In this document: in pieces, positions 3,577 to 52,154 of the stretch
How positions within the stretch are numbered: the stretch's first letter is position 1
How the letters are laid out: each line of letters begins with the position of its first letter
IMG/VR virus record: IMGVR_UViG_3300028648_000064
Coordinates: 3,708 to 67,707 of that record
Length of the DNA stretch: 64,000 bases
Strand: one strand, 5' to 3'
Origin: a virus
Notes under the pieces: model-generated
Seen by the model: only the letters and a program-made list of their open reading frames with translations
What the model was told of the DNA's origin: nothing
Database searches by the model: none
Position numbers and translations under genes: made by a program

Positions 3577-3756
3577 TTACTGGAAGCGGATGCCGAGGGC
3601 GGCGAGCCCCATCCCGACGAGCCCGACGCCTTCGTTGATCTTCGTGCCGTCGAGCACGTCGGCCGCGATCCCCTGAAACACCAAGCCGAGCCCGCCGCCG
3701 ATCATCGCGAGCGCGCCGGCGAGCGTCCGATACCCCTTGAGCCACGAGAGTTGCAT
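3577..3756 (-). CDS. small holin-like membrane protein (59 aa)
   Basis: MQLSWLKGYRT followed by two hydrophobic segments; GAGGAGG RBS; in the lysis cassette. Confidence 0.65.
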   Translation of the reverse strand: MQLSWLKGYRTLAGALAMIGGGLGLVFQGIAADVLDGTKINEGVGLVGMGLAALGIRFQ

Positions 3757-31848: not shown

Positions 31849-32823
31849 ATGCGCCCGGACCTCTCGCCCGCGATCGACTGGCTGAAGGCCCTCGCGATCA
31901 TCGCCGTTGTCGCGGCGCACGCCGGGCCATTCGGCTTCACACAGGCCCACCCCGTCGATGCGATCGTGCGCTTGCGGATCGTGTCCTTTCACGTCTCGGT
32001 GTTCCTGTTCGTGTCCGGATTCCTGCACAGCAGCGCCACGCCGCTGACGGCAGCAGAGACGTGGCGACGGCTTCAGCGCATCCTCGGCCCCTACCTGGTC
32101 GCGTCGCTCGCGATCACGGCCTTGCACCTGATGCCGCACGCGACGTGGAGCGCGTTGCCGTGGAATCTCGCGACCGGCAACGCACACGGGACCTACTATT
32201 ACGTGCTCGTCTGGTGCGGCTGCGTCCTCTCCGGGTTGGTGTGGTCGCGGCTGCGTGGCGGCGGACTGCTCGCGGCGCTCGCGCTGGTGGCGGTCGCGAC
32301 CGAATGGCGGAGCCGGCATGCGATCGTCGGCGTGTTTTGGGGCATCCGCGACCCGCTGTTCCAAGGGTGGTTGTTCTGTTACCTCGCCGGCTGGTGCGCG
32401 CAGCGATACGACGCGCTCGACGTCGTGCGCCGGATTCCCCGCGCCAGCGTCGGCGTGGCCCTCGTCGGTAGCCTGCCGTGGCTGCTGCGCGATAGCGCCG
32501 CTACGGCGGTCACGGATCGCCGCATCCTCTACGCGGCGAGCGTCGTCCTCCTCGTGACCGCGCTCGCACGCCACGCCCCGCCCCTGGTTCGCTGGCTGAG
32601 TCGTGAAACCTTGTGGGTGTACCTGGCGCACATGGCGATTCTGGCGCCGCTCGTCCGCGCAACCACCGCATGGCCGCCGATCGCGCGCCTCCCGGTCGTC
32701 GCGATCGTCACGCTCGCCGCGTGCGCGGCAGGCATCGCGCTCGCGCGGTGGCTCCAGCGCGTCGTGCGTCCCAACGGGCATCGTCACCACGCCTCGTCGA
32801 TGCAGACGAGCACGGTGCAATGA
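31849..32823 (+). CDS. acyltransferase family 3 (OafA-like membrane O-acyltransferase)
   Basis: IDWLKALAIIAVVAAH, FHVSVFLFVSGF, HGTYYYV, SRETLWVYLAH; about 10 TM segments. Confidence 0.9.
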   Translation: MRPDLSPAIDWLKALAIIAVVAAHAGPFGFTQAHPVDAIVRLRIVSFHVSVFLFVSGFLHSSATPLTAAETWRRLQRILGPYLVASLAITALHLMPHATWSALPWNLATGNAHGTYYYVLVWCGCVLSGLVWSRLRGGGLLAALALVAVATEWRSRHAIVGVFWGIRDPLFQGWLFCYLAGWCAQRYDALDVVRRIPRASVGVALVGSLPWLLRDSAATAVTDRRILYAASVVLLVTALARHAPPLVRWLSRETLWVYLAHMAILAPLVRATTAWPPIARLPVVAIVTLAACAAGIALARWLQRVVRPNGHRHHASSMQTSTVQ

Positions 32824-35800
32824 TGGACACCGCTCGACCATGACCCCGTGCGCGCCGCCTTGATGTGCCAAATGCTGCTTGTCGCCACCGTGTCCTTGTG
32901 GGTCGCGTCGACGCACGCCCACTCATTGGTAGCCGACGTCCCGGTGATGGTGCAGGTGACGGTTCCGGTACTCCATGTGCAGAGCCGCGCCGCCCCGTCC
33001 GTGCCGCCGGTCGCTGCACAGCTCGAGACGGGCGCCGTCTCCACGGTGAAGACGTAGGTCGCCGCGTTCGGCGCCTCGATTTGCGTCTGGCACGAGAGGC
33101 CCGAAATGGTGACGCCGGCACCGACCGGGAGGAAGGCGCCATCCTGCCCGGTGTTGGCGTAGCTGCCCGCGAAATAGGACGTGCCCGCATTGCTGCCGCC
33201 GAAGGCCACGAGCGCGCACGCGCGCACCGGCACGGCCGCCGATCCGTTCCCGACCGTTACCTGCGGCACCGTTGCCGAGCCGCCGTTCGTGTCGAAATGG
33301 AGCCGCCCCGCCGTCGTGGAGCCGGCGCTCGTCGAGTTGGGCACCGTGAACGTCGCCGGGGCGAGCGTGTCGCCGCCGCCTGCGGCGTTGGAATGGTTGT
33401 GCGTCGCGTTCGCGAAGCTCGCGATCGTAGGCGTCGTCAGCGTCTTGTTGGTCAGCGTCTCCGAGCCCGCGAGCGTCGCGACATCGTTGTCCGTCGTCGC
33501 GGCGTTGATCTTGGCGACGGAGTCCCATTCGGTGTCGCGCGTGAGCGTCGACGGAATCTCGCCGTCGGTCACGTTGATCATGGCCGCATCGAAGGTGAAC
33601 CGGCTGAGATTGCAGGCCGCGATGGTGCTGGTAGTGCCCGTGTCGACCTTACACCGCACGTCCCACGTCCCATTGATCGCGGTCGTGATGTAGTGCTCCA
33701 GGTGCATGAGGCACTGCTTGGCCGCCGTGCCTTCGCAGGTCACCCGGCGACTGGCGCCACCGCCGGAGACGTCCACGGCGTTGTTCCGCATCTTGCAGGT
33801 GAACGTCTTTGGCAGCGTGCCGCTCGCGCCTGTCATCTCGGCATCGAACGTGAGACGGGTTCCGGCCGCCGTATTCGTCCACGAACTCAAGCTCGCGACC
33901 GTCACGTAGGTGTCGGCCGTCGTGCCGTTCATGTCGCTATCGCAAGTGATGTCCTGCACGTACGTCGCTTGGGCGCCGACGCGGCGCCACTCGCCTGCGG
34001 TGTCGCAGTCGCCGCTACTCGGGACACACGACCAGACGCGGTAGTCGTCTTGATCCACGCAAATCTGGCCGACCTTGCCGTCGGTTAGCCCGGTGCAGTC
34101 GGTCGCATGCGATCGCGTCTTGTTGGTGAATGCCGTGAAGTCCGACGAGCCGAGGCACCCCGGCTGCGACCCCGACGCGGCATTGCACGAGAGCGCGAGC
34201 GTCCCGGCTTGGATGCTGCCGGTCGCAACGATCGGCGCGGCGGCGGTGACGGCTGGGGTCGGCGTGAGCGTCGGCGACGGCGTGAATGTCGCCGTGGGGG
34301 TCGGGGTCGGCGCCGTCAGGTCATGCGTCACCCCCGCCGCGCGACACTTCTTGGTGTTCGTCGTGAGATCGTACCAGCACTCGCCGTCGATCGGATTCGC
34401 GACCCACGACGCGTCGACGCTCGGCGCATCGCTACTGTCCTCGGCCGCCGCGCCCGTATCGACCCAGTGCACGCGACAGACGCCGTTGCCCGTGCAATCC
34501 GTGCTGCGGGTGCAGGTTGTGCCGTCGTTGCTACCGGCGTGGCACTTGAGCGTCCCCGGCGCCGTGACGGTCGCCAGCCGGTCGTAGTCGGTGTTCTGCC
34601 GGCCATAGACGCGGTAGCTCGTCGCGCGTCCGATCCGATCCCAAATGACCGTGACGGCGCACGCGCTCCCGGTACATCCCGACGTCGTCACCGACACAGG
34701 CGTCGACGCCGTCGTCTCGCCGTACTCCGTGAGGCCCGTGACCTTGTACTCGTACGTCTCGTTGGGAAGCGAGCCGCCGCTGGTCGCAAAGGTCGGTGTC
34801 CGTGCGGTCGTCACCGTCAAGGGGTGCGTCTGCGGCGCTGGGCACTTGAGCGTGCCTTCGTAGCTGCCGCCGCCCCACCGGCTACGCCCCGTGGCGACGT
34901 CCGCGTAGCTCAACGTCCCGGCGATGCGCCGCCGGCATGCGTCGTAGTCCAGCACCCCCGCGACCGCGACCGTCGTTCCCGTACCGACGTCCACCGCCGT
35001 GTGCGGCTGCTCCCACTGGACGACGGAATTGTTGCTCACCACACGGAGCGCCCGGACACTGACCACCGTCCGGTTTTTCTGCGCGCTCGGCGAGTCTTGG
35101 TCGCACGTGATCTGCGAGGTCTTCAGGCCGCTCACGTCCGTGGTCGCGCTCGCCCCGTTCTGGATCACGTTGTTGTCGAGGAATAGATTGAACTCGGTGC
35201 CGCACCCCTGCGCCTGAAACTCCACCACGCCGCCGCTGGCCCCTTCGCGCGTGCCGGCTTGGATGAAGCTGTTCATGACGCCAAAATCGCTCGACGAGTT
35301 GTTGCGCGGGCAGACGTCGGTCGCGTCGCACGTCGATCCCGGGCAGTCGGTCGCTTGCGTGGCGACCGTGCAGAGGCGACCGACGTTCGCGCCGCCGACG
35401 CAGACGGCGCAATCCGCGTTCGCCGCGCACGCGCGCGACGGGAGCGCCGTGCAGGTGTCGCCCCACGGCTCGAAGCGAATCGAGGTCTGCGACGAGTTGG
35501 CCGTGAACCCGAACGTCGTGATGCGATCAAAGACGTTGGTCGCGTTGCCGCGGCCCGTGAAATCGACGTCGCGACCAGCGCCCCAATGCACGAGCGACGC
35601 GTCCCGCACATTGAAACCGAAGGTGCCCCCGGTGGAACACATCGCGTCGCCGTCGCCCCAATGCTGCACGCTCATGCGCTCGAAGCGCACACTCGCGCGG
35701 TCGGTCACGTCGACCGTGCAGTCTGCCGACCCGTGGTAGAGCATCGTCGAGTTTTGGGCGGCGCCGAGATAGGTGATGTGTCCCGGCGAGGGCACGCTTC

Positions 35801-38060
35801 CGGTTCCACCGCCCGAGATAGTTTCGTTGTACCGGCCCGCACCAAGCACGATGCCGTACTGCTTCACGGGGCCGGTACAGGTGCCGGCGTTCGCGGCGGT
35901 GCAGACGCTTGTAGTCGCCGTGCACGTCTCGCCGCCGGGGCAATCGCTGTTCTCGTTGCAGTCCGTCGCCGTCGTCGTGGAGCACCGCCCGCAGCCGAGT
36001 GCTTGATTCCCCGAGCAGGTCGCGAAGCCATTGTCGTTGTTCGCGAGGATCTTCGCGTGCGCGCCGTCAGTGCCCGTCAGCGTGGCGCACGGCGCATTGA
36101 TCGGGCCGCAGTCGGCAGAATCCGTGCCGGCCTTGTCGACGTAGAGCGCGAACGCCGAGATGATTTCGGCTTGCGGCACCGGGATGCACGCGAGCTGCCC
36201 ACCCGTGACCGACGTGACTTGTCCGTCGGGACAGTTGGTGAGGGACGCATTGTTCGTGCCGCCCTTCGCGAGCGGCAGTGTCCCCTCTACTTCGTTCCCG
36301 TCGAGGTCAACTGCACCCGCCGCAATCTGTCCGTCGCCGAGCTGGCCAGAGAGCTGCGAAAACGCCACCTGCGCACACACCGCCGCTCCTGACGTGATGT
36401 CCGTCATGTACTGCCCCGACGTGCAGGCGGTCGGGTCGAAGGCGCCGAAGTCGCCGACCTCGGGCACGTCGTCGTCGGTCTGACACTCGACTCCGGTACC
36501 CCCGCTGGTGCCGCCGAGTGTCTGCGCGTCGGTGCAACTGGAGGCGAGGTTCGTGACCGTGATCGCGTCTCCGCCGCCGGCACTGTGCTCCGTCGCGTGC
36601 GCTTCTTCCTCGAGGTCCGCCGTGATGTCGGTTCCCCCGTTCGCCGCCGTCGCACACTGAATCGCGGACCCGTCGGCGGTGCAGAATCGTCCGGACGTGG
36701 ATACCGTCCCGACCTGCGGGTCGGTCTCCGTCCCGGTGATCGTGACCGTGTTGCCCGACCGGGCGGTTGCGACGATGCCGCCCCCCGCGAGCGTGATGCC
36801 GAGCCCCGAGGTCGCGCCGCCGCTGTCGGCGGTGATCGTGTTGATCTCGTTGGTGGTCGAGCCGTCGACTTCCGTCCCCGTGATGGTGACGGTGTCGCCG
36901 GAGCGGGCCGTGCTGACGATGCCGCCACCGGCCAAGGTGATGCCGAGGCCGCTCGTCGCGCCACCCGCGTCGGCCGTGACGGTGTTGATCTCGTTCGTCG
37001 TGGACCCGTCCACCTCGGTCGCCCCGATGGTGATGGTGTCGGTCGTGGCGTTGCCCGTGATCGTGACGATGCCCGAGGCGGCGAGCGCCAGCGTGTCCGT
37101 CGTGCTGTCGGCGACCGGATCGGTGCCCGAGGGCGCGTCGATCGTCTCGAAAATGTTCTGCAACTCGTTGGTCGTGGAGCCGTCGACTTCACTCGTGAGC
37201 GCGTTTTCCACGCACCCGGTGACATCCGCGCAGGCGAGCGACCCTTGCAGATCCTCGAGATCAAGCACGCTTTCGAGCTCGGATTCGACCGCGAGTTCGT
37301 CGAGATCGTTCGCGCCCATGTCCCCGTCCACGTCGCCGTTCAGCGTGGGATAGGGCGTTGGCGTTTGCGTGGCCGTGACGGTGACGGTTGGCGTCGGTGT
37401 GACCGTGACCGTGGGGGTGGGCGTTGCCGTCGGGGTTGCCGTCGGTGTCGGTCCGAGCGCGATGGTCAGCGTGTCCGTCGAGCTGTCCCCGGTGCAGACC
37501 AGCGGGGCCGGGCACGTAATGTTGAGCGTGTCGGTCGCGTTGTCGGCCACGGGATCGGTGCCGTTCGGAGCGTTGAACGTCTCGAACGAGTTGCCCGCGC
37601 CCCCGCCCGTCGCATCTGCCGCACAGCCCCACGCGCCGCCCGAGAACTTCTGAATCTGCCCGTCCGAGCACGGCGTGATGCCGAGCGTCGCGCCTTCAGT
37701 GCCCGTCTTCGTGAGCCCGCCGCCGCTTGTCGCGTCGGCCACGTAGTCGCCGGTTGTGTGCGTGCCGAGCTCGGGCTGTGCCGTAGCGGTCGCCGTCGGG
37801 GTCGCGCTCACCGTTGGTGTCGGCGTCACCGTGACGGTGGGCGTCGCCGTCCGGGTCGCCGTGGGCGTCGCGGTGGCCGTGGGGGTCGGCGACGGCGTCG
37901 CGGTTGGCCGGAACGGGACGCACGTGCACGCCCCGTCCCCGATGACCCGCACGGCGGCATCCGGTCCGCAGTCGCATGCGAGCGGCGGCCCTTCCCACTG
38001 GGCAAAGCTCCGCCCGGCAACCACGAGGGTCACCAGCAGGACGACAAGAAGGCGCTTCAC
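32784..38060 (-). CDS. giant signal-peptide-bearing fibre/adhesin-like protein (1758 aa)
   Basis: MKRLLVVLLVTLVVAGRSFA-Q; PT linkers; EVDGSTTNE repeats; phage-fibre motifs GTLPLAKGGT and TLTNKTLTTP; beta-helix-like middle; Cys modules. Confidence 0.8.
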   Translation of the reverse strand: MKRLLVVLLVTLVVAGRSFAQWEGPPLACDCGPDAAVRVIGDGACTCVPFRPTATPSPTPTATATPTATRTATPTVTVTPTPTVSATPTATATAQPELGTHTTGDYVADATSGGGLTKTGTEGATLGITPCSDGQIQKFSGGAWGCAADATGGGAGNSFETFNAPNGTDPVADNATDTLNITCPAPLVCTGDSSTDTLTIALGPTPTATPTATPTPTVTVTPTPTVTVTATQTPTPYPTLNGDVDGDMGANDLDELAVESELESVLDLEDLQGSLACADVTGCVENALTSEVDGSTTNELQNIFETIDAPSGTDPVADSTTDTLALAASGIVTITGNATTDTITIGATEVDGSTTNEINTVTADAGGATSGLGITLAGGGIVSTARSGDTVTITGTEVDGSTTNEINTITADSGGATSGLGITLAGGGIVATARSGNTVTITGTETDPQVGTVSTSGRFCTADGSAIQCATAANGGTDITADLEEEAHATEHSAGGGDAITVTNLASSCTDAQTLGGTSGGTGVECQTDDDVPEVGDFGAFDPTACTSGQYMTDITSGAAVCAQVAFSQLSGQLGDGQIAAGAVDLDGNEVEGTLPLAKGGTNNASLTNCPDGQVTSVTGGQLACIPVPQAEIISAFALYVDKAGTDSADCGPINAPCATLTGTDGAHAKILANNDNGFATCSGNQALGCGRCSTTTATDCNENSDCPGGETCTATTSVCTAANAGTCTGPVKQYGIVLGAGRYNETISGGGTGSVPSPGHITYLGAAQNSTMLYHGSADCTVDVTDRASVRFERMSVQHWGDGDAMCSTGGTFGFNVRDASLVHWGAGRDVDFTGRGNATNVFDRITTFGFTANSSQTSIRFEPWGDTCTALPSRACAANADCAVCVGGANVGRLCTVATQATDCPGSTCDATDVCPRNNSSSDFGVMNSFIQAGTREGASGGVVEFQAQGCGTEFNLFLDNNVIQNGASATTDVSGLKTSQITCDQDSPSAQKNRTVVSVRALRVVSNNSVVQWEQPHTAVDVGTGTTVAVAGVLDYDACRRRIAGTLSYADVATGRSRWGGGSYEGTLKCPAPQTHPLTVTTARTPTFATSGGSLPNETYEYKVTGLTEYGETTASTPVSVTTSGCTGSACAVTVIWDRIGRATSYRVYGRQNTDYDRLATVTAPGTLKCHAGSNDGTTCTRSTDCTGNGVCRVHWVDTGAAAEDSSDAPSVDASWVANPIDGECWYDLTTNTKKCRAAGVTHDLTAPTPTPTATFTPSPTLTPTPAVTAAAPIVATGSIQAGTLALSCNAASGSQPGCLGSSDFTAFTNKTRSHATDCTGLTDGKVGQICVDQDDYRVWSCVPSSGDCDTAGEWRRVGAQATYVQDITCDSDMNGTTADTYVTVASLSSWTNTAAGTRLTFDAEMTGASGTLPKTFTCKMRNNAVDVSGGGASRRVTCEGTAAKQCLMHLEHYITTAINGTWDVRCKVDTGTTSTIAACNLSRFTFDAAMINVTDGEIPSTLTRDTEWDSVAKINAATTDNDVATLAGSETLTNKTLTTPTIASFANATHNHSNAAGGGDTLAPATFTVPNSTSAGSTTAGRLHFDTNGGSATVPQVTVGNGSAAVPVRACALVAFGGSNAGTSYFAGSYANTGQDGAFLPVGAGVTISGLSCQTQIEAPNAATYVFTVETAPVSSCAATGGTDGAARLCTWSTGTVTCTITGTSATNEWACVDATHKDTVATSSIWHIKAARTGSWSSGVHHCTVLVCIDEAW

Positions 38061-38503: not shown

Positions 38504-39493
38504 CTACGCCGCCACCCTCTCCGCCCGTCGGGCTTCTTTCCGGAGGATCGCGGCGAGCTTCTGGGCGGCGGCGTCCCAGGTGTACGACCGCATCGCTTTG
38601 GCGGCGCGCTGGCCCATGGCGAGGGCGGCGTCGTAATGCTGCATGACCCAGAGCATGTCGCGGGCGAGGTTCTCGACGGAGAGCGTCGCGAACGCGTAGC
38701 GCCCGTCCGGAGCCGTCGAGGGATGCTCCTTCGCGGGCTCGAGGCGCTGCACCTTCGGCCGGACGAGCCGGCAGCGCCCGCGCGCGAAGTCGAGGTGCCC
38801 GCCGTAGTCGGTCGCCACACTCGGGAGGCCGGCGGCGAGCGCCTCGGCAAGCCCAAGGCCGAAGCCTTCCCCCATCGTCGGATACGCGAACGCGTGCGCG
38901 TCGCGGTAGAGCGCCGCGAGATCCTCCCGCGTGAGGCTCCGCGAGTCGAACACGAAGTTGCCGTGCGTCTCACGGACGCCGCTTCCGTCGATGAGCGTCG
39001 TCTTCACGACGAGCCGGACAGCACCCCCCATGCGGGCGAAGTACCGGTCCCAGGTGGCGGCCAAGACGGGCCAGCCTTTTCGGAAGTTCATGGCCCCGAC
39101 CCAGAGCCAGGTGAACGGTGCCGAGAACCTGCGCTCCGGGACCGTCGCCGGCTCGACGCCGAGCGGCACGACGTAGATCGGCGCGTCGGTGAACTGCCGG
39201 AAGATCCGCAAGCAGAAGTACGACGGCACCACGAGCACATCCGCCGCCCGCACGCCCGCGATCGCGTCCGCGGGCATGTCGTGGCTCTCGTACATCGACA
39301 CGAGCACGTTCCGCTTCCCGGGGACCGGCTCGAAGACCATGGGCGCGCACATCTGGAGCGCAATCGGGGCGTCCCCGTCGTGGACGATGTGGCCCGTGAG
39401 GCCGCGATCGAAGCCGTCGAGCATCGTGCGGTAGCCCGCGTGGAGACCGCCGGAGAGGTACCGCGCGAGTCGGATGTCGACGGGAAGCATCAA
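38504..39493 (-). CDS. glycosyltransferase family 4 (GT-B)
   Basis: FTWLWVGAMNFRKG; AFAYPTMGEGFGLGLAEALAAGLP; YTWDAAA. Confidence 0.9.
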   Translation of the reverse strand: MMLPVDIRLARYLSGGLHAGYRTMLDGFDRGLTGHIVHDGDAPIALQMCAPMVFEPVPGKRNVLVSMYESHDMPADAIAGVRAADVLVVPSYFCLRIFRQFTDAPIYVVPLGVEPATVPERRFSAPFTWLWVGAMNFRKGWPVLAATWDRYFARMGGAVRLVVKTTLIDGSGVRETHGNFVFDSRSLTREDLAALYRDAHAFAYPTMGEGFGLGLAEALAAGLPSVATDYGGHLDFARGRCRLVRPKVQRLEPAKEHPSTAPDGRYAFATLSVENLARDMLWVMQHYDAALAMGQRAAKAMRSYTWDAAAQKLAAILRKEARRAERVAA

Positions 39494-41232: not shown

Positions 41233-44082
41233 TTACCGCGTGGCGGCATGCTCACCGCGCGACGCGCGCAGGCGTCGGCGCATGCCGTCCATCACACTGC
41301 CCAATTCAGACACGGCCGCCGCGTCGTCGCGCGTCCGCGCCAGGCGCTGGCGGAGGCGGTCGAGATCGGGGCCGAGCACGGCGGGCGCGGGGGCACCGCG
41401 CTCCCCGGGCATGGGGTGGCCGTGCGTGTCGTCCTCGTGGTCGTCGTCCGCGTGCTCGTCGGACTCGTCACCCGGCTTCGCGCGCGTCGCCTCGGCGAGC
41501 ACCTGGTCGAGAAGCGCGGCGCCGTCGGTGAAGTGCTGGCGGGCCTGCGCGAGGCGGTCGAGGTTGCGCTTGGCGAGGACCGCGCCGGCGCGGCCGTGCA
41601 CATCGCGTGCTCCGACGAGCATCGGCAGCTCGCGCTCGAGGCGGGCGAGCACCTGATCGGCGACCGCGTCGACGCCCGCGACCGCCACTGTCAGGGAATC
41701 CGGGGGCGGGCCGGAGGCGGGACGCGCGAGCGCCGGCAGCGCCCGGGTCGCGTGCTCGAGGGCGGCCGGCATGCGGTATCGGGCCGGGGCGAGTTGCACG
41801 TCGGTGATCAGATCGCGCTGCTCTTGGAGCTTCGTGAGTGCTCGGGTGAGCGCCTCGCCGAGCGTGCAGCCGTCTTCCGCGCGCAGCACCTGCACGAAGT
41901 GCGCGAGCTCGCGGACGTGCGCCCCGGAGTAGCCCTCGGTCGCCGCGACCGCCGCCGCCCGCTCGGCCTCGCCGAGATCGGGCAACCACTGCGCGAGCAT
42001 GCGGCCGCGCATCGCGGCAGTCGGCAGCTCGAGCCGGAGCACGTCGTGGAACCGCCCCGGACGGTCCAGGAGCGCTTCCGGCAGCCGCTCCGGGTAGTTG
42101 GTCGTCAGGATCGTCACCACGCCCGACGACCGCCCGATGCCGTCCATCTCGGTCTTCAGGAGGTCGTGGCTGTGGTTCCCGAGGAAGTTGTCAATGTCCT
42201 CGAGAAAGAGGATCGCCGGCGCACACTCCCGCGCGAGCGCGAACGCGTCGGCAATGCCCTCGAAGGCGCCCGCGTAGTAGAGATCGCGGGCCGACACCCA
42301 AATGAAGGTCGCCCGGGCGCTGTTCATGAGGATGCGGCCCGCGAGCGTCTTGCCGGTGCCCGGCGGCCCCATGGCGATGAGGCCGCGATTCGGCAGCGCC
42401 CCGCCCTGCTTGTTCAGGAGGTCGGCGATGCGCTGCAGCGGACCGATGGTGTCGGGCTCAAGAAACAGATCGCTCCACGTCTCGGCCGTGCGCTCGAGGA
42501 ACGCGCCCGAGAGGGCGAACGCCTCGCCCTTCAGGAAGTTGAGCTGGCGTGCGCGGGACCACGTGCGCGCGAGGAGTGCCTCGTCGACCTCGCCGTGGTC
42601 GCGATGCCGGTACGTCCGCACCTCGAGCCCGTACCACCGTGGCTGCACCCGGAGTGTGAGCCGGTCGGTGCCATGCGCGAGAAAGCGCGTGCCTTCGATC
42701 AGGAAGGTGGCCCATCGGGTGGAATTGAGTTGCAGTCGCTCGTAGACCGGTGGCTTCTCGGTTCCGTCGCACGGGTCGAGATTCCGGACGTCGTGGGTGT
42801 CGTAGCTGGCCAGCGCTTCGTCGAGCGCCGACAAGAACGCGCCCATGCGGCAGCTCGGCACGCGCGTGCCGTTGGCGACGAGATCGCGCACGCGACACTC
42901 GAGGAACCGAGCTGCGAGGTCGATCTCCGCCGTCGAGGGCGTGTATTCGACGGCGGTCGTATCGAAGGCGCGGCCGAGCGTGGGATTCCAGCGCACGGCC
43001 GTAGCGTCGGGCGCCGCGCGCACGTCGTCGTCGGCGTCGTCCGCCGCCTGGACTTCATCCCGGACGTACCACTTGTGGATACCGTCCATCCCGTCGAACT
43101 GAATGCCGTAGGCCGGCGTGCTGATCTCGACGATGACGCCGGTCTTACCGCGTGTCATGGCCTCGTGCTCCGCACCAGGCTTCACGGTGACGCGGTCCCC
43201 GACTTGGAACTCGGCGTCAGCGGGGGGCGCATCCGCCGCGGCCCGGACGCTCGCCGTCTTTGCGTGCCCGGTGTCGTGCGCCTCACTGCCGAGGTCCGTC
43301 GACGCGCCCATGCTGGCGCGCGCCTGGGCGATCAGATCCGCGACCGAAGTCGGCTCGGCGGCCGGAGCCGACGGGGGCATCTCGGCCATGTCCCGCACCG
43401 TGTAGATCGCGCTCCCGCGCTCCCGGACGAAGAACGGGACGTGTTCTTCGGGGAGGCGCCGCGCTTGGACTGCGCGCTGGAGCGCCTGGGCATCCGCCCC
43501 GATCAGCACGAACGCGCCCTCGAGCACTTCGCTATCGAGGTGGCGGAGACCGAGCGTGCGGCCCTCCTCGTCGACGATCGCCTCGAGCTTCCGGGGAATC
43601 CATCCGCCGGAGACCGCGTCGAGGTCGTGCGCGGCATACATGCGGAAGAGCGTCTGCGAGAGCTTCGCCGCGTCGCTGCCGTCGTCCACCCGGAGCGGCA
43701 CCGCGTCGGCCTCGATGATCGGGCCGAGCTTCACGTCGACCATCGGCTCGATCCGGATCCAGTTGCCGACGGGGAGCTGATCGTACTTGTGTGACCACGT
43801 GACTCGGGGGTTGGCCCGGATGTGCGAGAGGTCCGCCCCGCTCACCATGAACTCGTCGCCGTCCCGCTTCCGCCCCTGCGAGAAGAGCACGAAGCGCAGC
43901 ACCGGCCCGGTCGGCGTGTCGCCGATGATCCGGGTGCCGTGCAGGGAGAGGCCACGGGCCTTGGGCTGCTCGCCGCGGGTGTAGGCGCCGTAGAACGCCG
44001 CGATCGCGGCCTGGCGTTCTTCGGAGACGGAGGGGGCGAACGACAGCGCCGACGGCGCGGCCGCGAGGGTGGATCGATGCAT
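41233..44082 (-). CDS. HK97-type prohead protease fused to an SH3/KOW-like domain and an AAA+ ATPase
   Basis: RDGD..., NPRVTWSH...PVG, AVSGGW, EGAFVLIGAD protease motifs; GPPGTGKT, LFLEDID, TTNYPERLPEALLDRPGRF ATPase motifs. Confidence 0.88.
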   Translation of the reverse strand: MHRSTLAAAPSALSFAPSVSEERQAAIAAFYGAYTRGEQPKARGLSLHGTRIIGDTPTGPVLRFVLFSQGRKRDGDEFMVSGADLSHIRANPRVTWSHKYDQLPVGNWIRIEPMVDVKLGPIIEADAVPLRVDDGSDAAKLSQTLFRMYAAHDLDAVSGGWIPRKLEAIVDEEGRTLGLRHLDSEVLEGAFVLIGADAQALQRAVQARRLPEEHVPFFVRERGSAIYTVRDMAEMPPSAPAAEPTSVADLIAQARASMGASTDLGSEAHDTGHAKTASVRAAADAPPADAEFQVGDRVTVKPGAEHEAMTRGKTGVIVEISTPAYGIQFDGMDGIHKWYVRDEVQAADDADDDVRAAPDATAVRWNPTLGRAFDTTAVEYTPSTAEIDLAARFLECRVRDLVANGTRVPSCRMGAFLSALDEALASYDTHDVRNLDPCDGTEKPPVYERLQLNSTRWATFLIEGTRFLAHGTDRLTLRVQPRWYGLEVRTYRHRDHGEVDEALLARTWSRARQLNFLKGEAFALSGAFLERTAETWSDLFLEPDTIGPLQRIADLLNKQGGALPNRGLIAMGPPGTGKTLAGRILMNSARATFIWVSARDLYYAGAFEGIADAFALARECAPAILFLEDIDNFLGNHSHDLLKTEMDGIGRSSGVVTILTTNYPERLPEALLDRPGRFHDVLRLELPTAAMRGRMLAQWLPDLGEAERAAAVAATEGYSGAHVRELAHFVQVLRAEDGCTLGEALTRALTKLQEQRDLITDVQLAPARYRMPAALEHATRALPALARPASGPPPDSLTVAVAGVDAVADQVLARLERELPMLVGARDVHGRAGAVLAKRNLDRLAQARQHFTDGAALLDQVLAEATRAKPGDESDEHADDDHEDDTHGHPMPGERGAPAPAVLGPDLDRLRQRLARTRDDAAAVSELGSVMDGMRRRLRASRGEHAATR

Positions 44083-44122: not shown

Positions 44123-46378
44123 CTACGCCGGCTCGTCGACGCAGCGACAGTTGACGGTTTCCTCGGGGGGCCCGTTCACGTCCATGACGTAGAGCAGCCC
44201 GTTCGAGAACGGCTCGCCGACCGCGACCTCTTCGCCGTCGACGTGCTGGTGCGAATCGCGCACCTGCGGATCGCGCGACGAGAGCCAGGAATGGCGGTCG
44301 ACGCCCTGCCCGTGCATCTCGAGAAACCGGCTCCCCGAGACGCTACTCCCGATCTCGGTCCGCGCGATGGTCCGGGCGCGCGTCGCGCCGGCGTTCATCA
44401 CGCCACGAACGCGCTCCGCGAGGCCCGTCAGCGTCTCGCCCGCGTCGAGGCCTTCCCCGAGCGTCTCGCGGAGCGCCTCGCGGATCGTCTCGTTGATGCC
44501 GACGACCTTGATCTCCTTCACCTGGAGAAAGGCCCGCATCCCCGGCGCGTCGAGCCCGAGCGGGTCGCTGTCGATGAGGTTGGCGACGCCCTCGGCGCCG
44601 ATCCGGATCGCGTCTTCGAAGTACGGCCGCGAGAGCGTCCGCAGGCGCTCGTTTGCCGCCTGCTCGTCAAAGAGGAGCCGGCGGAGCTCGTCACTCGACG
44701 CGCGCGCCACCTGCTTCAGCGCCCGGAGGTTCCCCATCACCTCGGCATTGAGGTCGAAGATGTGGCCGCGGACTTCCGTCCGATACCGCTTCGTCAGCGG
44801 GTTGAACGAGGCCATGACGGCGCGCCACCGAGCGAACCGGAGCCCGTCGCGTTCCTGCTGCGCGCGGCGCGCGCGCACGCGCGCGGACGGGAGCACGATC
44901 ACGCGGCGTTCCTTCGGGGGCGGGAGCTTGGCCGGCGGTGTATCGTCGTCGTCGTCGTCGCCGCCGGGGGTCTTCGGGTCAGCCGCCGTCGGCGTGACGT
45001 CGATCGCCAGCGGATCGGAGAGCCGCCCGCCCTCGAGCACCTCCGAGACTGGCGCGAGGCTGAACGACACGAGCGCCACGTCCGGGAGCGCGTCGGGGTC
45101 GACGCCGAGGTCGCACAGCGCCGCTGCATCGCGTGCCGGCACCTGGCCCTCGTTCACGAGCTTGCAGTAATTCGTCACCTTCTCGGAGAAGTCCTTCTTC
45201 AGGACCTCGATCTCGTCGATGTCGAAGTAGCCGATGTGCCCCGGCGCGTAGCGATCGACGAAGATGCGCTGATAGTACGCCGAGAGGAGCGTGCAGAGCG
45301 GGACCGTCACCTGCCGCGCTTCCTGCGCTTCCGCGGCCGTGATCTGCTCGCCCGAGAGCGCCGACTTCTCCTGGTCGTTCAGGAGGACCGCCGGCGTCTT
45401 GAAGCACATGGCGATCTCGCGAAGCCCCCAGGTGCGCCCTTCGACGAACTGCATGTCCCGCTGCGTGATGCCGAGATCCTCGAGGTCCCAGTCGAGATTG
45501 ATCGCGCCGACCTTCCGCATCTTGGTCGAGCCGGCATAGGCGTCCTCGAACGCGAGGCGGGCCGCCTTCAAGTCATCGGGCTTGAGCGGCTGGCGGGTCT
45601 GCTCCGGCCCGACGCCGCGGTACTTCAGGAGGAGCGACAGCGCGCCGCCGTTCACGAAGAATGCTTCCTCGTACCGCTGCATCGCGTAGTCGCCGTTGAC
45701 GGCCTGCTGCGCCGCCTGGAGCGGGCCGAGCCCGAGGATCTGCGGTCCCGAGTCCGGATTCGAGAGCTTGCACTGGTCGAGCGTTTCCGGGTTCACCCAC
45801 TGCGGCCGCGAGCCCCACCGGAGCTCCCACGCGAGGAGCGCCCAGGTGGCGGGGTCGATCAGCGGCGACACGTGCGCGCTCGTGAGCGCGCGGAAGGTCA
45901 GAGGGATCCGCGTCTTCGAGTCGACGACCGGGTCCGCCTGCGTCCACGTGTTCCCGTGGGCAAGCAAACTTCCGACGTGCATCTCGACCATCTGCGAGAA
46001 GACCGGGTAGAGCGTCGGATGCGGCCGCTTCAGGCGATCGAGGAGCGCGTGCTTCGCGACCGGCTCACCGGGGTTGCCGTCCGGATCGGGCTTCGCGAGC
46101 TTGAACGGTACGCGCCCGACGTTCGTCATCGCACGCGAGATCGCCGTGTAGACGATGCTGTGGCTGCTGAACGAGCCGTTGACGCGCCGCCCGAGCCCGG
46201 CGGACTGAAGCTGCTCCTGGAGCGTCCGCACCATCGCGTCGCTGAGCGTCGAGGCGAACGCCCGGTGCTCCGCGCCGCGGATCTCACGGTCGTGGGCGAG
46301 CACTTGGTCGATCACCGTCGGAAGCGCGGACGCCGGCGTGCCGCCCAGGGCGCGCACGATGCGGTCGGCGAGGGGCAT
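44123..46378 (-). CDS. HK97-family portal protein fused to a MuF (SPP1 gp7-like) head morphogenesis domain
   Basis: LLAHGNTW, LGLGPL, FFVNGG, IAMCFKTP portal motifs; C-terminal RARTIARTE...W...D..VR.SH...DG...NCRC. Confidence 0.9.
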   Translation of the reverse strand: MPLADRIVRALGGTPASALPTVIDQVLAHDREIRGAEHRAFASTLSDAMVRTLQEQLQSAGLGRRVNGSFSSHSIVYTAISRAMTNVGRVPFKLAKPDPDGNPGEPVAKHALLDRLKRPHPTLYPVFSQMVEMHVGSLLAHGNTWTQADPVVDSKTRIPLTFRALTSAHVSPLIDPATWALLAWELRWGSRPQWVNPETLDQCKLSNPDSGPQILGLGPLQAAQQAVNGDYAMQRYEEAFFVNGGALSLLLKYRGVGPEQTRQPLKPDDLKAARLAFEDAYAGSTKMRKVGAINLDWDLEDLGITQRDMQFVEGRTWGLREIAMCFKTPAVLLNDQEKSALSGEQITAAEAQEARQVTVPLCTLLSAYYQRIFVDRYAPGHIGYFDIDEIEVLKKDFSEKVTNYCKLVNEGQVPARDAAALCDLGVDPDALPDVALVSFSLAPVSEVLEGGRLSDPLAIDVTPTAADPKTPGGDDDDDDTPPAKLPPPKERRVIVLPSARVRARRAQQERDGLRFARWRAVMASFNPLTKRYRTEVRGHIFDLNAEVMGNLRALKQVARASSDELRRLLFDEQAANERLRTLSRPYFEDAIRIGAEGVANLIDSDPLGLDAPGMRAFLQVKEIKVVGINETIREALRETLGEGLDAGETLTGLAERVRGVMNAGATRARTIARTEIGSSVSGSRFLEMHGQGVDRHSWLSSRDPQVRDSHQHVDGEEVAVGEPFSNGLLYVMDVNGPPEETVNCRCVDEPA

Positions 46379-46392
46379 TCAGTCGAGAACGA

Positions 46393-47883
46393 TCAGAACG
46401 CAGCGATCGCCGCGGGGTCGAACACCGCCGGTCGGCGATCCAGGAAACACAGCATCAGCGCATCCGCGTTGTCCGGGCTCCGCCCGTCCAAGCGCTTCCG
46501 CATCTCGTCCTTGCTCTCGATCTTGGTGCGGCCCCGGGACGAGCGGTCGTATTTGATAGCCACGAGCTCGGCGGCGAGGTCGAGGTCGTCCGGGTCGAGG
46601 TCGATGTCGCCGTCGATGAAACGCTCGCGGAGGCCCCAGTAGCCTTCGGCGCGGAGGTTCTCGAATTCCTCGTTGTTGGCGGCGCCCTCACCGACGTTGA
46701 TGCCGATGACGCTGGCCTCGCCGAGCTCGGCGGCACGATTCACGGCGCCAAGGCCCACGCCGCACTTGTCGATCTTCACCGCCGTCGCCTCGACCTCGCG
46801 CTTGTGCGCGAGCACGTTCCCGAGGGTCTTCATCGTGTCGGGTTGCCGATCGCGCCGCAGGCGACGCGCCACCGGCCCCCAGCGGGCGTAGACGACGTTC
46901 TCGTCACCGCCCGCCCCGACGTCGACGCCGAGCTCGCGCGGCTCGCCGAGCGAGAGCCTTCGGTTCTGCGCGGCAAGGACGAGGCCGGGTGAAATGAGTC
47001 CGCCATCCGTCTGCTCCGGGAACTCCCCTTCGACCTTGGACTTCCAGAGCGGGTTGCTCTCGCCCCACTTCCGCCGCTTCTCTTCGACCCAGGTCTTCCC
47101 GACCAACAGCGGACGGATCTCGTCAGGGACGTCCTCCCCGGTGAAGTTCGGCGAGTCGAAGGCGGAGATGTGGATGACGTTCCAGCCGGAGCCGGGCTTG
47201 CAGACCTCGGCGAATTCGGTTCGCGGGTCGTCGGGGTTGCCGATCGCGAGCATGCGCGAGTCATCGTTGGCGATGAGCGAGTCGGCGGCGACGAAGAGGT
47301 TCTTCGGGATGCCGCAACTCTCATCCAGCACGACCAGCATGTAGCGCTGGTGAAGTCCCTGAAACGCCGTCGGGTCTTGGTCAGCCGGCTTCCGACCGAA
47401 GGCCACGAGCTCTTCGCGGAACGTCCCGTCCGGCTTCCGGATTGGCAGAAACCACTCCGTTTGATTGAGTCGCCCAGGGAGCCCCCCGCGCGCATGGAGC
47501 CGCGCGATCTCACGCCAGAGAATCGCGCGAACCTGCGGGGCAGTCGGCGCCGACGTGACCACGAAGGCCGTTCCCGGGGGGTGGACGTCCAGCCACCACC
47601 CGACCGCGACGGCCGCACAGAGCGACTTGCCGACCTCGTGAGACGCGTGCACCGAGGTGAGACGATGGTCCCGGAGACTCTCAATGATGGCCCGCTGCTT
47701 TGACCAGAGGTGAACGCCAGCTCGCTCGCGCGCCCACGCGACGGGGTCCTTGAGGTACCGTCGCCGCGCCGCCTCACGCGCAATCTCGTCGTCAGTGGGC
47801 GGACGAAACGCCGCCCGGGGCGTGGCCGTTGGTGCCGTTGCCGTTGTGGTGTGCGTGGTCGTGTCCGTTGGTAAGCGGCGCAC
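46393..47883 (-). CDS. terL: terminase large subunit
   Basis: ASHEVGKS Walker A, VVLDES Walker B, IGNP motif III, GVDVG nuclease Asp, SPDNADALML. Confidence 0.93.
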   Translation of the reverse strand: MRRLPTDTTTHTTTATAPTATPRAAFRPPTDDEIAREAARRRYLKDPVAWARERAGVHLWSKQRAIIESLRDHRLTSVHASHEVGKSLCAAVAVGWWLDVHPPGTAFVVTSAPTAPQVRAILWREIARLHARGGLPGRLNQTEWFLPIRKPDGTFREELVAFGRKPADQDPTAFQGLHQRYMLVVLDESCGIPKNLFVAADSLIANDDSRMLAIGNPDDPRTEFAEVCKPGSGWNVIHISAFDSPNFTGEDVPDEIRPLLVGKTWVEEKRRKWGESNPLWKSKVEGEFPEQTDGGLISPGLVLAAQNRRLSLGEPRELGVDVGAGGDENVVYARWGPVARRLRRDRQPDTMKTLGNVLAHKREVEATAVKIDKCGVGLGAVNRAAELGEASVIGINVGEGAANNEEFENLRAEGYWGLRERFIDGDIDLDPDDLDLAAELVAIKYDRSSRGRTKIESKDEMRKRLDGRSPDNADALMLCFLDRRPAVFDPAAIAAF

Positions 47884-50269: not shown

Positions 50270-50890
50270 TCACTTCCAAGTGCGACCGAGCATGACCTGC
50301 TCGATCGCGCCAAGAGTTACGCCGTACTCCTCGGCTAGCTGTCGATGGGTGACGCCGCCGGAACCCGGCCGACCTTTGCCGTGTCGCGTGCCGTACCGGC
50401 GGCGAATCTCATCGACCTGCGGACGCGTGAGAATCGCCTTCCCCGCCGTTTCACCACGGGCCTGCCGACACTTGCGGACCTTGTCGGCGTTATTGTCGGC
50501 GTCGGTCCCGAGGAAGAGGTGCGCCACGCGAACGCACGGCGGATTGTCGCAGCGGTGCAGCACGCCCATGCCGTCCGGGATCGGCCCGCGCTGCAATGTC
50601 CATGCGACCCGGTGCGCAAGCTCAAGGCGTCCGCGCACCCCAAGCCTTCCGTACCCGAGCGGGTTTCGAAACCCCGTCCACAACCAGCACCCGTCCGATA
50701 CCGAAACGTACGACCAGAACCGGAGCGCGAGCTGCGGCAAAGACCCGGGCCCGAGCCGTCGCTGGTCCCGGCGGCGGTACGCCGTCGCTAGCATGCCCAT
50801 GAGCGCCCCCGCAGGGACGCGAGGGTCCGCCGCGGCCCGGAGGAGAACGGGGATCTCCGCAGGCCCGAAGTCAGCCGCCGTGTTTCGCAT
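50270..50890 (-). CDS. HNH homing endonuclease (HNH_3 type) with C-terminal HTH
   Basis: FW..V...GCWLWTG...GYG...AHRVAW...VLHRCDNPPCV...HLFLGT..DN. Confidence 0.9.
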   Translation of the reverse strand: MRNTAADFGPAEIPVLLRAAADPRVPAGALMGMLATAYRRRDQRRLGPGSLPQLALRFWSYVSVSDGCWLWTGFRNPLGYGRLGVRGRLELAHRVAWTLQRGPIPDGMGVLHRCDNPPCVRVAHLFLGTDADNNADKVRKCRQARGETAGKAILTRPQVDEIRRRYGTRHGKGRPGSGGVTHRQLAEEYGVTLGAIEQVMLGRTWK

Positions 50891-52154
50891 TCGCCTGGTT
50901 GGGGGAGTGCTGCCTGTATTCGATGAGTGGATGCGGCACGCGAACTGCGTCGTGGCCTGCTGCGACGATGCGTCGAAAGAGGTCATGATCCTCGGGCCCA
51001 CCGGTGTCCCGATAGCCGCCGACTTCCAAGTACGCGGACCGTCGGTAGGCCGAGCTCCCGTGCATCACGTTGTGCGACTGCATCCGCACCCGAATCGACG
51101 CGTCGAAGTCCGGGAACGTCCAGTGATAGAGCCCGACGTCCGGCAGCTTCGCGGCCCCCACCTTGCCCGCCAAGATGTGCGCGCGCTCGCCGAAGAGGAC
51201 CATGTCCGTGTAGGCGATCGCGGCGAAGGGATGCGCGATCAGCGCCCCAGCGCACCGCTCCACGTAGTCGGCGCGGGCGCGGTTGTCGGCGCCGAGGAAG
51301 CACACGAACTCGCTCGCCGTCGCGTCAACGCCGCGGCGGAAGTTGCCGACGACGCCGAGGTTCCGCTCGTTTCGATGCACCGTCACGCGCCCGGCGTAGC
51401 GCTCGAGCACCTGCATCGTCTCGTCGGTGCTTGCGTCGTCCATCACGACGAGCTCGTCGGGGGCTTGGGTCTGCGCGAGCGCGGAGTCGAGGGCCTCGCC
51501 CAAGTACCGGCCGTATTGATAATTCGCGACGATCAGGGCGACGGTCGGATGCCCGAGGCGTGTCGTTTCGAGCGCGCAGTCGCGGCGGAGCGTGTAGCGG
51601 TGGTCGTCGCCGTTCTCGCAGGCGACGGCGCCGAGGAAGCCTGACTCAGGGAGCAGCGCGAGCCCGGCCACTCTCCCGTGCGGGTACGCGAACCAGCGGA
51701 ACCCCTGCGGATCGAGCGCGCGGAGGTGCTCGGGGACCGCGAGCTCGTGGCGGATGGCGTCGTGGTCGAGCGTCGTCAGGTCCGCGTGGCTCGCGGAGTG
51801 CCACTGGAGGCGGCCGCCGTGCTCGACGATCGTGCGGAGGTCGTCGAGATCGGCGAAGTCCGCGGGCGGTTCCGGGGCGTCGAAGGCGTTGTCGCGGCCG
51901 ATGTGGTCGCCGGAGAGGAAGCATTCGAACGGTACGCCGTGGCGGCGGAGCAGCGGGAGCGCGTACGTGAGGACGTTCCGGTAGAGGCCGTCGAACGTGA
52001 TCACGTAGGCGTTCGGGTCGTGCGGGTCGTACTCGTCGAGGTACGTCACGCGCTTGCCGCGGAGGTCCAGCAGGAGCTGCGCGAGCGCATCGGGCGTAAC
52101 CCACCACCGAGTCGCAGCCACTGGCGCGACTTTGTGGAGGTAGAGGATGGGCAC
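50871..52154 (-). CDS. polysaccharide deacetylase (CE4/NodB-like) plus GT2 glycosyltransferase fusion
   Basis: LYLHKV, ITFDG, WHSASH, FAYPHG; then VVMDDASTD, FLGADN, EDHDL. Confidence 0.88.
   Translation of the reverse strand: MPILYLHKVAPVAATRWWVTPDALAQLLLDLRGKRVTYLDEYDPHDPNAYVITFDGLYRNVLTYALPLLRRHGVPFECFLSGDHIGRDNAFDAPEPPADFADLDDLRTIVEHGGRLQWHSASHADLTTLDHDAIRHELAVPEHLRALDPQGFRWFAYPHGRVAGLALLPESGFLGAVACENGDDHRYTLRRDCALETTRLGHPTVALIVANYQYGRYLGEALDSALAQTQAPDELVVMDDASTDETMQVLERYAGRVTVHRNERNLGVVGNFRRGVDATASEFVCFLGADNRARADYVERCAGALIAHPFAAIAYTDMVLFGERAHILAGKVGAAKLPDVGLYHWTFPDFDASIRVRMQSHNVMHGSSAYRRSAYLEVGGYRDTGGPEDHDLFRRIVAAGHDAVRVPHPLIEYRQHSPNQANAKHGG

Follow-up and report, generated by a model that had tools for sequence, protein, structure and literature searches.

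A prohead maturation protease with a BCS1/YjoB-like AAA+ ATPase between its catalytic domain and tail in a large family of uncultured phages

Textbooks describe the proteases that mature the proheads of tailed phages and herpesviruses as ATP-independent enzymes, and the spending of ATP in head morphogenesis is thought to be limited to DNA packaging and the host chaperonins. Here we describe a phage gene, P0001, whose 949-amino-acid (aa) product is predicted to join such a protease to a BCS1/YjoB-like AAA+ ATPase. The gene lies in a window of 64,000 nucleotides (positions 3,708 to 67,707 of the IMG/VR virus record IMGVR_UViG_3300028648_000064), which is part of a single 72,235-bp contig of ~69% GC that is evidently a phage genome. 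The positions of all features within the window are listed in Table 1.

The closest described enzymes are the HK97 gp4 and T4 gp21-type proteases (MEROPS S78/S77; Pfam PF04586), for example that of Gordonia phage Upyo. They have in common with the P0001 product the catalytic fold, the His/Ser(/Glu) residues and the gene position between portal and capsid, and the Upyo-type canonical protease also has the same "GR(V/T)LSxxN..." helix and acidic tail after its catalytic domain. However, the canonical prohead proteases are ATP-independent proteins of ~200–310 aa, whereas the fusion adds ~570–620 aa of linker, BCS1-like N-terminal domain (NTD) and AAA+ domain. Herpesvirus UL26 is an assemblin-linker-scaffold fusion with a C-terminal tail that binds the major capsid protein (MCP). 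As in UL26, the P0001 product has an N-terminal protease of the assemblin fold, a linker and a tail, here presumed to bind the capsid protein; unlike the fusion, the herpesvirus scaffolds have no ATPase. In the T4 head, prohead proteases are co-assembled inside the procapsids, where they digest the scaffold and themselves, and the resulting peptides exit via openings in the shell (PMC9958956).

On the ATPase side, Bcs1 is a membrane-anchored AAA protein of mitochondria that translocates the Rieske protein in its folded state, and YjoB is a chambered chaperone of B. subtilis. Both have a common NTD fold and carry ED in place of DE in the Walker B motif, and the ATPase activity of YjoB needs both Walker B residues; the YjoB hexamer and the Bcs1 heptamer are chambered rings for folded or aggregation-prone clients (PMC9565160). 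The P0001 module is like them in its combination of an NTD with a classical-clade AAA domain and in its ED Walker B, and they are its top structural matches. It differs in that its NTD has no sequence similarity to either one and in its location inside a viral protease. Closest among earlier reports is that of standalone BCS1 orthologs in jumbo phages, with the suggestion that they might move folded proteins into heads (Iyer et al. 2021, PMC7824862). Such BCS1-type AAA+ ATPases, known from jumbo phages and giant viruses and proposed to handle folded proteins during head assembly (PMC7824862), are separate genes without a protease, whereas the fusion sits in phages of 45–145 kb and is syntenic with the capsid gene. 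Lon and FtsH also carry AAA+ and protease on one chain, and the permuted members of the family described below share their AAA-then-protease order. However, the protease folds are different (Ser-Lys in Lon, Zn in FtsH, assemblin/S78 here) and most family members are protease-first with a long flexible linker. The likeness to Lon and FtsH is one of co-linearity.

The 949-aa open reading frame (ORF) reported between the portal and capsid genes in the initial annotation is real. Its ATG start is preceded at the proper spacing by an AAGGAG ribosome-binding site and lies 41 nt past the portal stop, the GC content at third codon positions (GC3) is 0.89, matches the neighbour genes and is uniform along the ORF, and the flanking genes carry the portal-MuF and PF05065 domains. 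The position between portal and MCP genes is the one typical of prohead proteases, and we take the fusion gene to be the only prohead protease gene of this phage.

By homology and modelled fold, residues 55–205 of P0001 are a prohead serine protease, and proteolysis is predicted. In support of this, the homologs P0003, P0004 and P0005 match PF04586 with 31.1, 22.6 and 33.3 bits (gathering cutoff 21), and P0001 aa 62–197 align with the protease of P0003 (BLASTP E 3e-11), which in turn matches phrog_80 "head maturation protease" (E 1e-22). P0001 also matches the protease part of phrog_617 (E 2e-5). Moreover, an AlphaFold2 model of the P0001 protease, made from an alignment of 70 family sequences, had a predicted local distance difference test score (pLDDT) >90 over aa 55–205. 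Exhaustive structural comparison (VIA-align) gave T4 gp21 (5jbl) as the top match (Z 11.2, root-mean-square deviation 2.8 Å, 131 residues), followed by the assemblins of varicella-zoster virus, human cytomegalovirus and Kaposi's sarcoma-associated herpesvirus (Z 8.4, 7.3 and 5.7). Two other searches did not recover the fold: Foldseek against the PDB with the model of aa 45–562 missed the protease and returned weak N-domain matches (Bcs1 and SRPBCC-like, E ~1e-3), and a PDB profile search with a six-sequence protease alignment gave only chance matches to orange carotenoid protein. His98 and Ser158 are conserved in 130/131 and 133/135 family members, respectively, and Glu188, the candidate third catalytic residue, in 134/134. 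Note that the lineage of P0001 and P0002 is the diverged end of the family, in which DRxGD reads KRDGD and PAN reads GAD. Thus the HK97-type protease initially seen at aa ~60–205 was upheld by the homologs, by phrog_617 and by the fold, P0001 having no Pfam match of its own there.

The second enzyme is a complete AAA+ domain with lid, matching PF00004 over aa 570–684 (E 4e-20, 73 bits) and retaining its ATPase motifs. Its best sequence matches in the PDB (to E 1e-34) were classical-clade AAA proteins (Cdc48/p97 D2, Afg2, VAT and Yme1). The Walker A lysine K578, sensor-1 N662 and the Arg fingers R674 and R677 are invariant in 150 sequences, and the ED of Walker B is kept in 149/150 (E628) and 150/150 (D629). 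In the lid motif G-Y-S-G-A-H (717–722), G720 and A721 are invariant, G717, S719 and H722 are present in 144–146/150 and Tyr718 in 105/150. This GxSGA-type lid replaces the sensor-2 Arg, and these features place the domain in the classical clade of AAA+. The glycine of the pore loop L-Y-Y-A-G is kept in 140/150. The Walker A lies exactly where it had been placed from the letters alone, the LFLEDID Walker B and the second region of homology (SRH), TTNYPERLPEALLDRPGRF, are present as read, and the AAA+ module is as complete as it had seemed.

Upstream of the AAA+ domain, the alpha/beta domain of the initial annotation does exist and was modelled at pLDDT above 95 (~97), its size being ~180 aa and not ~150. 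None of the 101 members whose NTD was compared with Pfam gave a match, nor did P0001 aa 350–560 at E<=10, and PF08740 (BCS1_N) did not match the NTD. By structure, the top PDB matches of the two-domain module were YjoB (7w42) and then heptameric Bcs1, over ~400 aligned columns, whereas other AAA proteins aligned over ~240–300 columns. VIA-align superimposed YjoB residues 23–404 on model residues 381–754 (327 residues, Z 22.7); the isolated NTD against the mBcs1 NTD gave Z 5.4, which is weak alone. Among AFDB fold clusters and BFVD, the named top matches were mostly BCS1 proteins, aligned to query residues ~350–800. No transmembrane helix was noted in the P0001 sequence or model, in which no transmembrane prediction was made. 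On its modelled structure, the module is BCS1/YjoB-like. We use this term, and not BCS1 ortholog, because sequence comparison did not place the module among the BCS1 proteins; the original assignment from the EDID motif is thus backed by the ED Walker B and the structural matches and not by sequence membership. A generic Cdc48/FtsH-like unfoldase was also considered as the best description and dropped, since the N-domain and the ED Walker B point to BCS1/YjoB.

The position of the ATPase within the protease was revealed by a helix near the C terminus. When 2.3 Gb of phage DNA were searched with a 71-aa query on this helix of P0003, the only two matches lay inside annotated capsid maturation protease genes of Gordonia phages. 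In the Upyo protease (307 aa), aa 70–180 align with P0003 78–182, and "KAGRTLSKANETNL...DKVL" (aa 191–222) aligns with P0003 757–788, equivalent to P0001 aa 831–862. The motif K-x-G-R-V-L-S-x-x-N-x-x-x-L is kept across the family. In the canonical enzyme the helix lies ~10 residues past the catalytic domain; in the fusion it is displaced by ~570–620 residues. Since the helix at aa 830–866 is homologous to the canonical post-catalytic helix, the ATPase is, by this alignment, inserted between catalytic domain and tail and not appended, which agrees with the first reading of a post-protease-type helix behind the ATPase. The tail itself (no Pfam match for P0001 aa 760–949 at E<=10) would have a role in capsid targeting. 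Directly after the AAA lid lies a further motif, with Tyr in 117/143 members, which could serve for docking, in the manner of an HbYX signal, or mark a site of processing or cleavage.

The fusion defines a large family of uncultured phages. A profile search over 1.84 billion representatives of clusters defined at 50% identity found at least 150 protein clusters that share the core, and each of the 150 matches listed scored >450 bits across the full 430 positions of the core. With a word-indexed search, 5.8 billion proteins had yielded only five relatives. The family occurs on at least 88 viral contigs of IMG/VR, of up to ~145 kb, and in GTDB genomes only on six contigs of metagenome-assembled genomes from unrelated phyla. 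Mean column identity is 66% for the core and 42% for the protease domain. When 155 proteins were classed by family hidden Markov models, the protease domain was present in 142 and not detected in 13; the order protease-NTD-AAA was found in 136, in 75 of which the tail helix was also detectable, and six had the permuted order NTD-AAA-protease.

In the permuted members the NTD-AAA stands directly before the protease, the domain order of FtsH and Lon. One of them, P0005 (L003:367-3657), is a single 1096-aa ORF that combines NTD-AAA, S78 protease and the PF05065 capsid domain, and the permuted P0027 and P0122 (1,094 and 1,091 aa) are of similar length. In a midpoint-rooted tree of the core, permuted forms fall in at least four places; because the support values are low, this is only suggestive of repeated rearrangement of the domain order. 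Split versions also exist: in L041:2260-7418 the S78 protease and the NTD-AAA are adjoining separate ORFs, and in L082:28-2804 an ORF containing S78 comes after the one for NTD-AAA. Four members from metagenomes (P0043, P0098, P0145 and P0172) have insertions of ~300–400 aa immediately after Walker A. These are probably inteins, and the two that were scanned, P0043 and P0098, gave Intein_splicing matches below the Pfam threshold. A P-loop intein site is typical of functionally constrained ATPases. A small gene resembling TacA1-type antitoxins stands before that of P0005.

The family is also linked to one kind of capsid gene. Among 92 related loci, 13 ended at a contig edge, and of the 79 assessable ones 71 had a homolog of the window's MCP, either <=1.5 kb downstream of the fusion (66 loci) or in the same ORF (five). 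A separate observation is a 2035-aa ORF with the family core (L044:6771-12878), downstream of which no MCP homolog was detected. In the window, the ~150 N-terminal aa of the MCP form a helical, delta-like domain, and no separate scaffold gene is present at the locus.

The reading that we favour, with somewhat less than even confidence, is that the fusion is an encapsidated ATP-driven chaperone coupled to a protease. We infer its encapsidation, ring formation, substrates and coupling as follows. The C-terminal tail would co-assemble the fusion with the delta-domain capsid protein and so bring it inside the procapsid. There, the NTD-AAA parts would form six- or seven-membered rings, with the proteases tethered by flexible linkers round the NTD side. 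ATP hydrolysis would then allow the ring to capture and remodel the helical delta domains and its own tails, and to pass them to the tethered proteases. Finally, the fusion would be self-digested and the fragments would exit before DNA packaging. Scaffold removal would then be an ATP-dependent, Lon/FtsH-like process. In a more specific form, which we put forward with greater reserve, the ring would dock under the capsomers by its C-terminal tails and extract and clear the delta-domain scaffolding with ATP, possibly representing an unrecognised class of ATP-dependent protease inside the procapsid. The N-terminal fusion of NTD-AAA to protease and MCP in P0005-type proteins would put the ATPase on the capsid-interior side, where its destruction would be required, and these proteins thus favour a morphogenetic role over that of an ejected cargo.

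Several points weigh against this proposal. HK97-type maturation proceeds without ATP, which leaves the need for an ATPase unexplained. The P0001 protease is itself diverged (PAN to GAD) and had no match in Pfam at E<=10, also when the N-terminus (aa 1–260) was scanned alone; a profile of 101 N-domains found no sequence relative in the PDB; and the AAA sequence is closer to Cdc48 and Afg2 than to Bcs1. Pore loop 1 is semi-canonical, with an aromatic residue at 602 in ~80% and a variable position. Moreover, the disordered linker of 100–300 aa between protease and NTD speaks against a rigid stacked AAA-protease chamber, and prediction of a complex between the capsid protein and the tail (aa 825–949) gave a score of 0.00, with partner pLDDT <50, which is evidence neither way. 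The clients of YjoB and Bcs1, which are folded or partly folded, are taken into a chamber and not threaded, and neither protein is known to feed a protease. The ATP-driven unfoldase that had been suggested at the outset is therefore less certain, because the BCS1/YjoB relatives are chambered chaperones or translocases of folded proteins (PMC9565160).

The main rival is an assembly chaperone or nucleator, in which the ring would be an ATP-dependent holdase or foldase for the MCP, its delta domain or the portal, and the protease would merely be carried along and later destroy the chain. We regard this as rather unlikely, and the same doubt applies to its extension, that the ring is a phage substitute for a chaperonin and may act as a template for capsomers by pairing its six tails with six delta domains. 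The chaperone reading fits the biochemistry of YjoB well, since YjoB uses ATP to keep specific substrates from aggregating and needs its chamber for activity (PMC9565160), although the chamber capacity of ~21 kDa is below the 48 kDa of the MCP. Standalone BCS1-like ATPases of ~400–450 aa occur in other phages, those of jumbo phages have been proposed to aid head assembly (PMC7824862), and the lack of a separate scaffold gene at the locus and the co-occurrence of the fusion with one MCP family point the same way. However, it leaves unexplained why the protease is covalently linked in 142/155 members and in both orders, and it fits this persistent link less well.

That the AAA+ is a cargo, loaded via the targeting tail, freed by self-cleavage and ejected with the DNA to act early on host proteins, seems improbable to us. 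The insertion between protease and targeting tail does resemble the loading of internal proteins by capsid-targeting sequences, in T4 the internal proteins enter the head, undergo trimming by gp21 and are then injected (PMC9958956), and the adjoining portal-MuF fusion is of a class often linked to head cargo. However, the module is conserved and its architecture fixed over at least 150 clusters, unlike polymorphic cargo, and no conserved flanking cleavage sites were identified. The permuted forms, upstream of protease and MCP, would yield one ATPase per capsid protein, an amount that could not stay in the head next to the genome. This alternative, also raised in the initial annotation, is thus weakened by the conservation of the module and the permuted protease-MCP fusions. 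Finally, an assembly or annotation chimera, or a decayed ATPase or protease, is hardly credible and effectively already refuted. The divergence of the P0001 protease beyond the reach of Pfam and a low-confidence linker making up ~17% of the protein could be read that way; however, the catalytic residues of both enzymes are all retained, GC3 does not change along the ORF, and the same single ORF is found in independent ENA, JGI and Logan assemblies and on >80 IMG/VR contigs. The independent assemblies and the breadth of the family rule out the chimeric join that had been named as a finding that would overturn the prediction.

The fusion is widespread but undescribed, and is assembled from known kinds of parts. 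Full-text literature searches brought up no paper that describes a head protein with protease and AAA fused, the 50,697 GenBank phage records gave generic AAA matches only in tblastn with P0001, with the full architecture absent, and none of ten clusters examined had an NCBI or UniRef record. One UniProt entry and AFDB cluster representative, A0A496ZL23 (927 aa), has the same architecture, aligned over P0001 37–828 (E 5e-52), and is labelled just "AAA+ ATPase domain-containing protein". Thus the initial remark that no described fusion of this kind was known still holds for the literature searched, but the fusion is common and has a UniProt entry. As A0A496ZL23, the sole named database relative, bears only this generic label, the finding closes an annotation gap. 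That a whole phage clade conserves an intact BCS1-type ATPase within its protease suggests that capsid assembly, or the removal of the scaffold, includes a step that depends on energy and has gone unrecognised. If ring and protease are coupled, a large clade of phages, all uncultured, would need energy for capsid maturation before DNA packaging begins, and AAA+ proteases, of which few architectures are known, may gain a new one. The fusion would also make the poorly understood BCS1/YjoB machines, whose clients are folded proteins, tractable in a bacterial virus, and the logic of tail-directed loading could serve engineered protein encapsidation.

Table 1. Features of the fusion gene and of its surroundings, in coordinates of the 64,000-nucleotide window
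Feature	Position	Strand	Details
Fusion gene P0001, 949 aa	41233-44082	minus	protease, linker, BCS1-like N-domain, AAA+, capsid-targeting-like tail
Prohead serine protease domain, aa 55-205	43468-43920	minus	S78/assemblin fold; AlphaFold2 fold, homologs, conservation
Catalytic His98	43789-43791	minus	
Catalytic Ser158	43609-43611	minus	
Candidate catalytic Glu188	43519-43521	minus	
Variable linker, aa 206-365	42988-43467	minus	mostly low confidence, pLDDT <50
SH3/KOW-like barrel, aa 287-348	43039-43224	minus	inside linker, lineage-specific
ATPase N-terminal domain, aa 366-545	42448-42987	minus	YjoB/Bcs1-NTD-like alpha/beta fold, family-specific
AAA+ domain with lid, aa 546-765	41788-42447	minus	PF00004, motifs
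Walker A	42346-42369	minus	GPPGTGKT
Pore loop	42268-42282	minus	LYYAG
Walker B	42190-42213	minus	ILFLEDID
Sensor-1	42097-42099	minus	N662
SRH	42049-42105	minus	TTNYPERLPEALLDRPGRF, with Arg fingers
Post-lid motif, aa 763-773	41764-41796	minus	Q-x-x-G-S-x-Y-R-P-[RK][KR]; P0001 reads QLAPARYRMPA
Conserved helix, aa 830-866	41485-41595	minus	K-x-G-R-V-L-S-x-x-N-x-x-x-L ... V-L; homologous to canonical post-protease helix
Acidic His/Asp-rich stretch, aa 867-904, and terminal amphipathic helices, aa 905-948	41236-41484	minus	scaffold-like tail
Terminase large subunit	46393-47883		upstream of fusion gene
Portal and MuF-like domain fusion	44123-46378	minus	PF04860 aa 75-412, PF04233 aa 636-747, phrog_2662; directly upstream of fusion gene
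Major capsid protein, 446 aa	39800-41140	minus	HK97 fold, PF05065 aa 158-440; downstream of fusion gene
GT4 glycosyltransferase	38504-39493	minus	directly downstream of capsid gene
Polysaccharide-deacetylase/GT2 fusion	50871-52154	minus	upstream of packaging genes
Giant structural-module ORFs	10366-15249, 17799-24848, 5081-9535, 32784-38060	minus	

Within the linker of P0001, the SH3/KOW-like segment that had been noted from the sequence is confined to P0001 and P0002 within the family. It is a lead from structure matches in the ESM Atlas (L21e, NdhS and KOW; TM 0.72–0.81), the Pfam matches (NHase_beta_C, DUF4819 and R67 DHFR) being non-significant (E 0.02–0.12).

As judged by two of its head and packaging proteins, the phage lineage is deeply divergent, because tblastn of the MCP against the 50,697 GenBank phage records gave no match at E<=1e-3 and the best identity of the terminase was 49%, to a faecal phage, with ~40% to Arthrobacter phages. 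In a relative of the window (L004), the portal and the MuF-like head morphogenesis domain are two separate adjoining genes. The structural module of the window also contains giant ORFs: a 1758-aa one without a Pfam match (32784-38060), a 1627-aa protein with purple-acid-phosphatase N and metallophosphoesterase domains (10366-15249), a 2349-aa tape-measure-like protein (PhageMin_Tail; 17799-24848) and a 1484-aa protein with a Laminin_G_3 domain (5081-9535). Finally, the GT4 glycosyltransferase gene and the deacetylase/GT2 gene, one on either side of the head genes, suggest glycan modification of the virion or the host.

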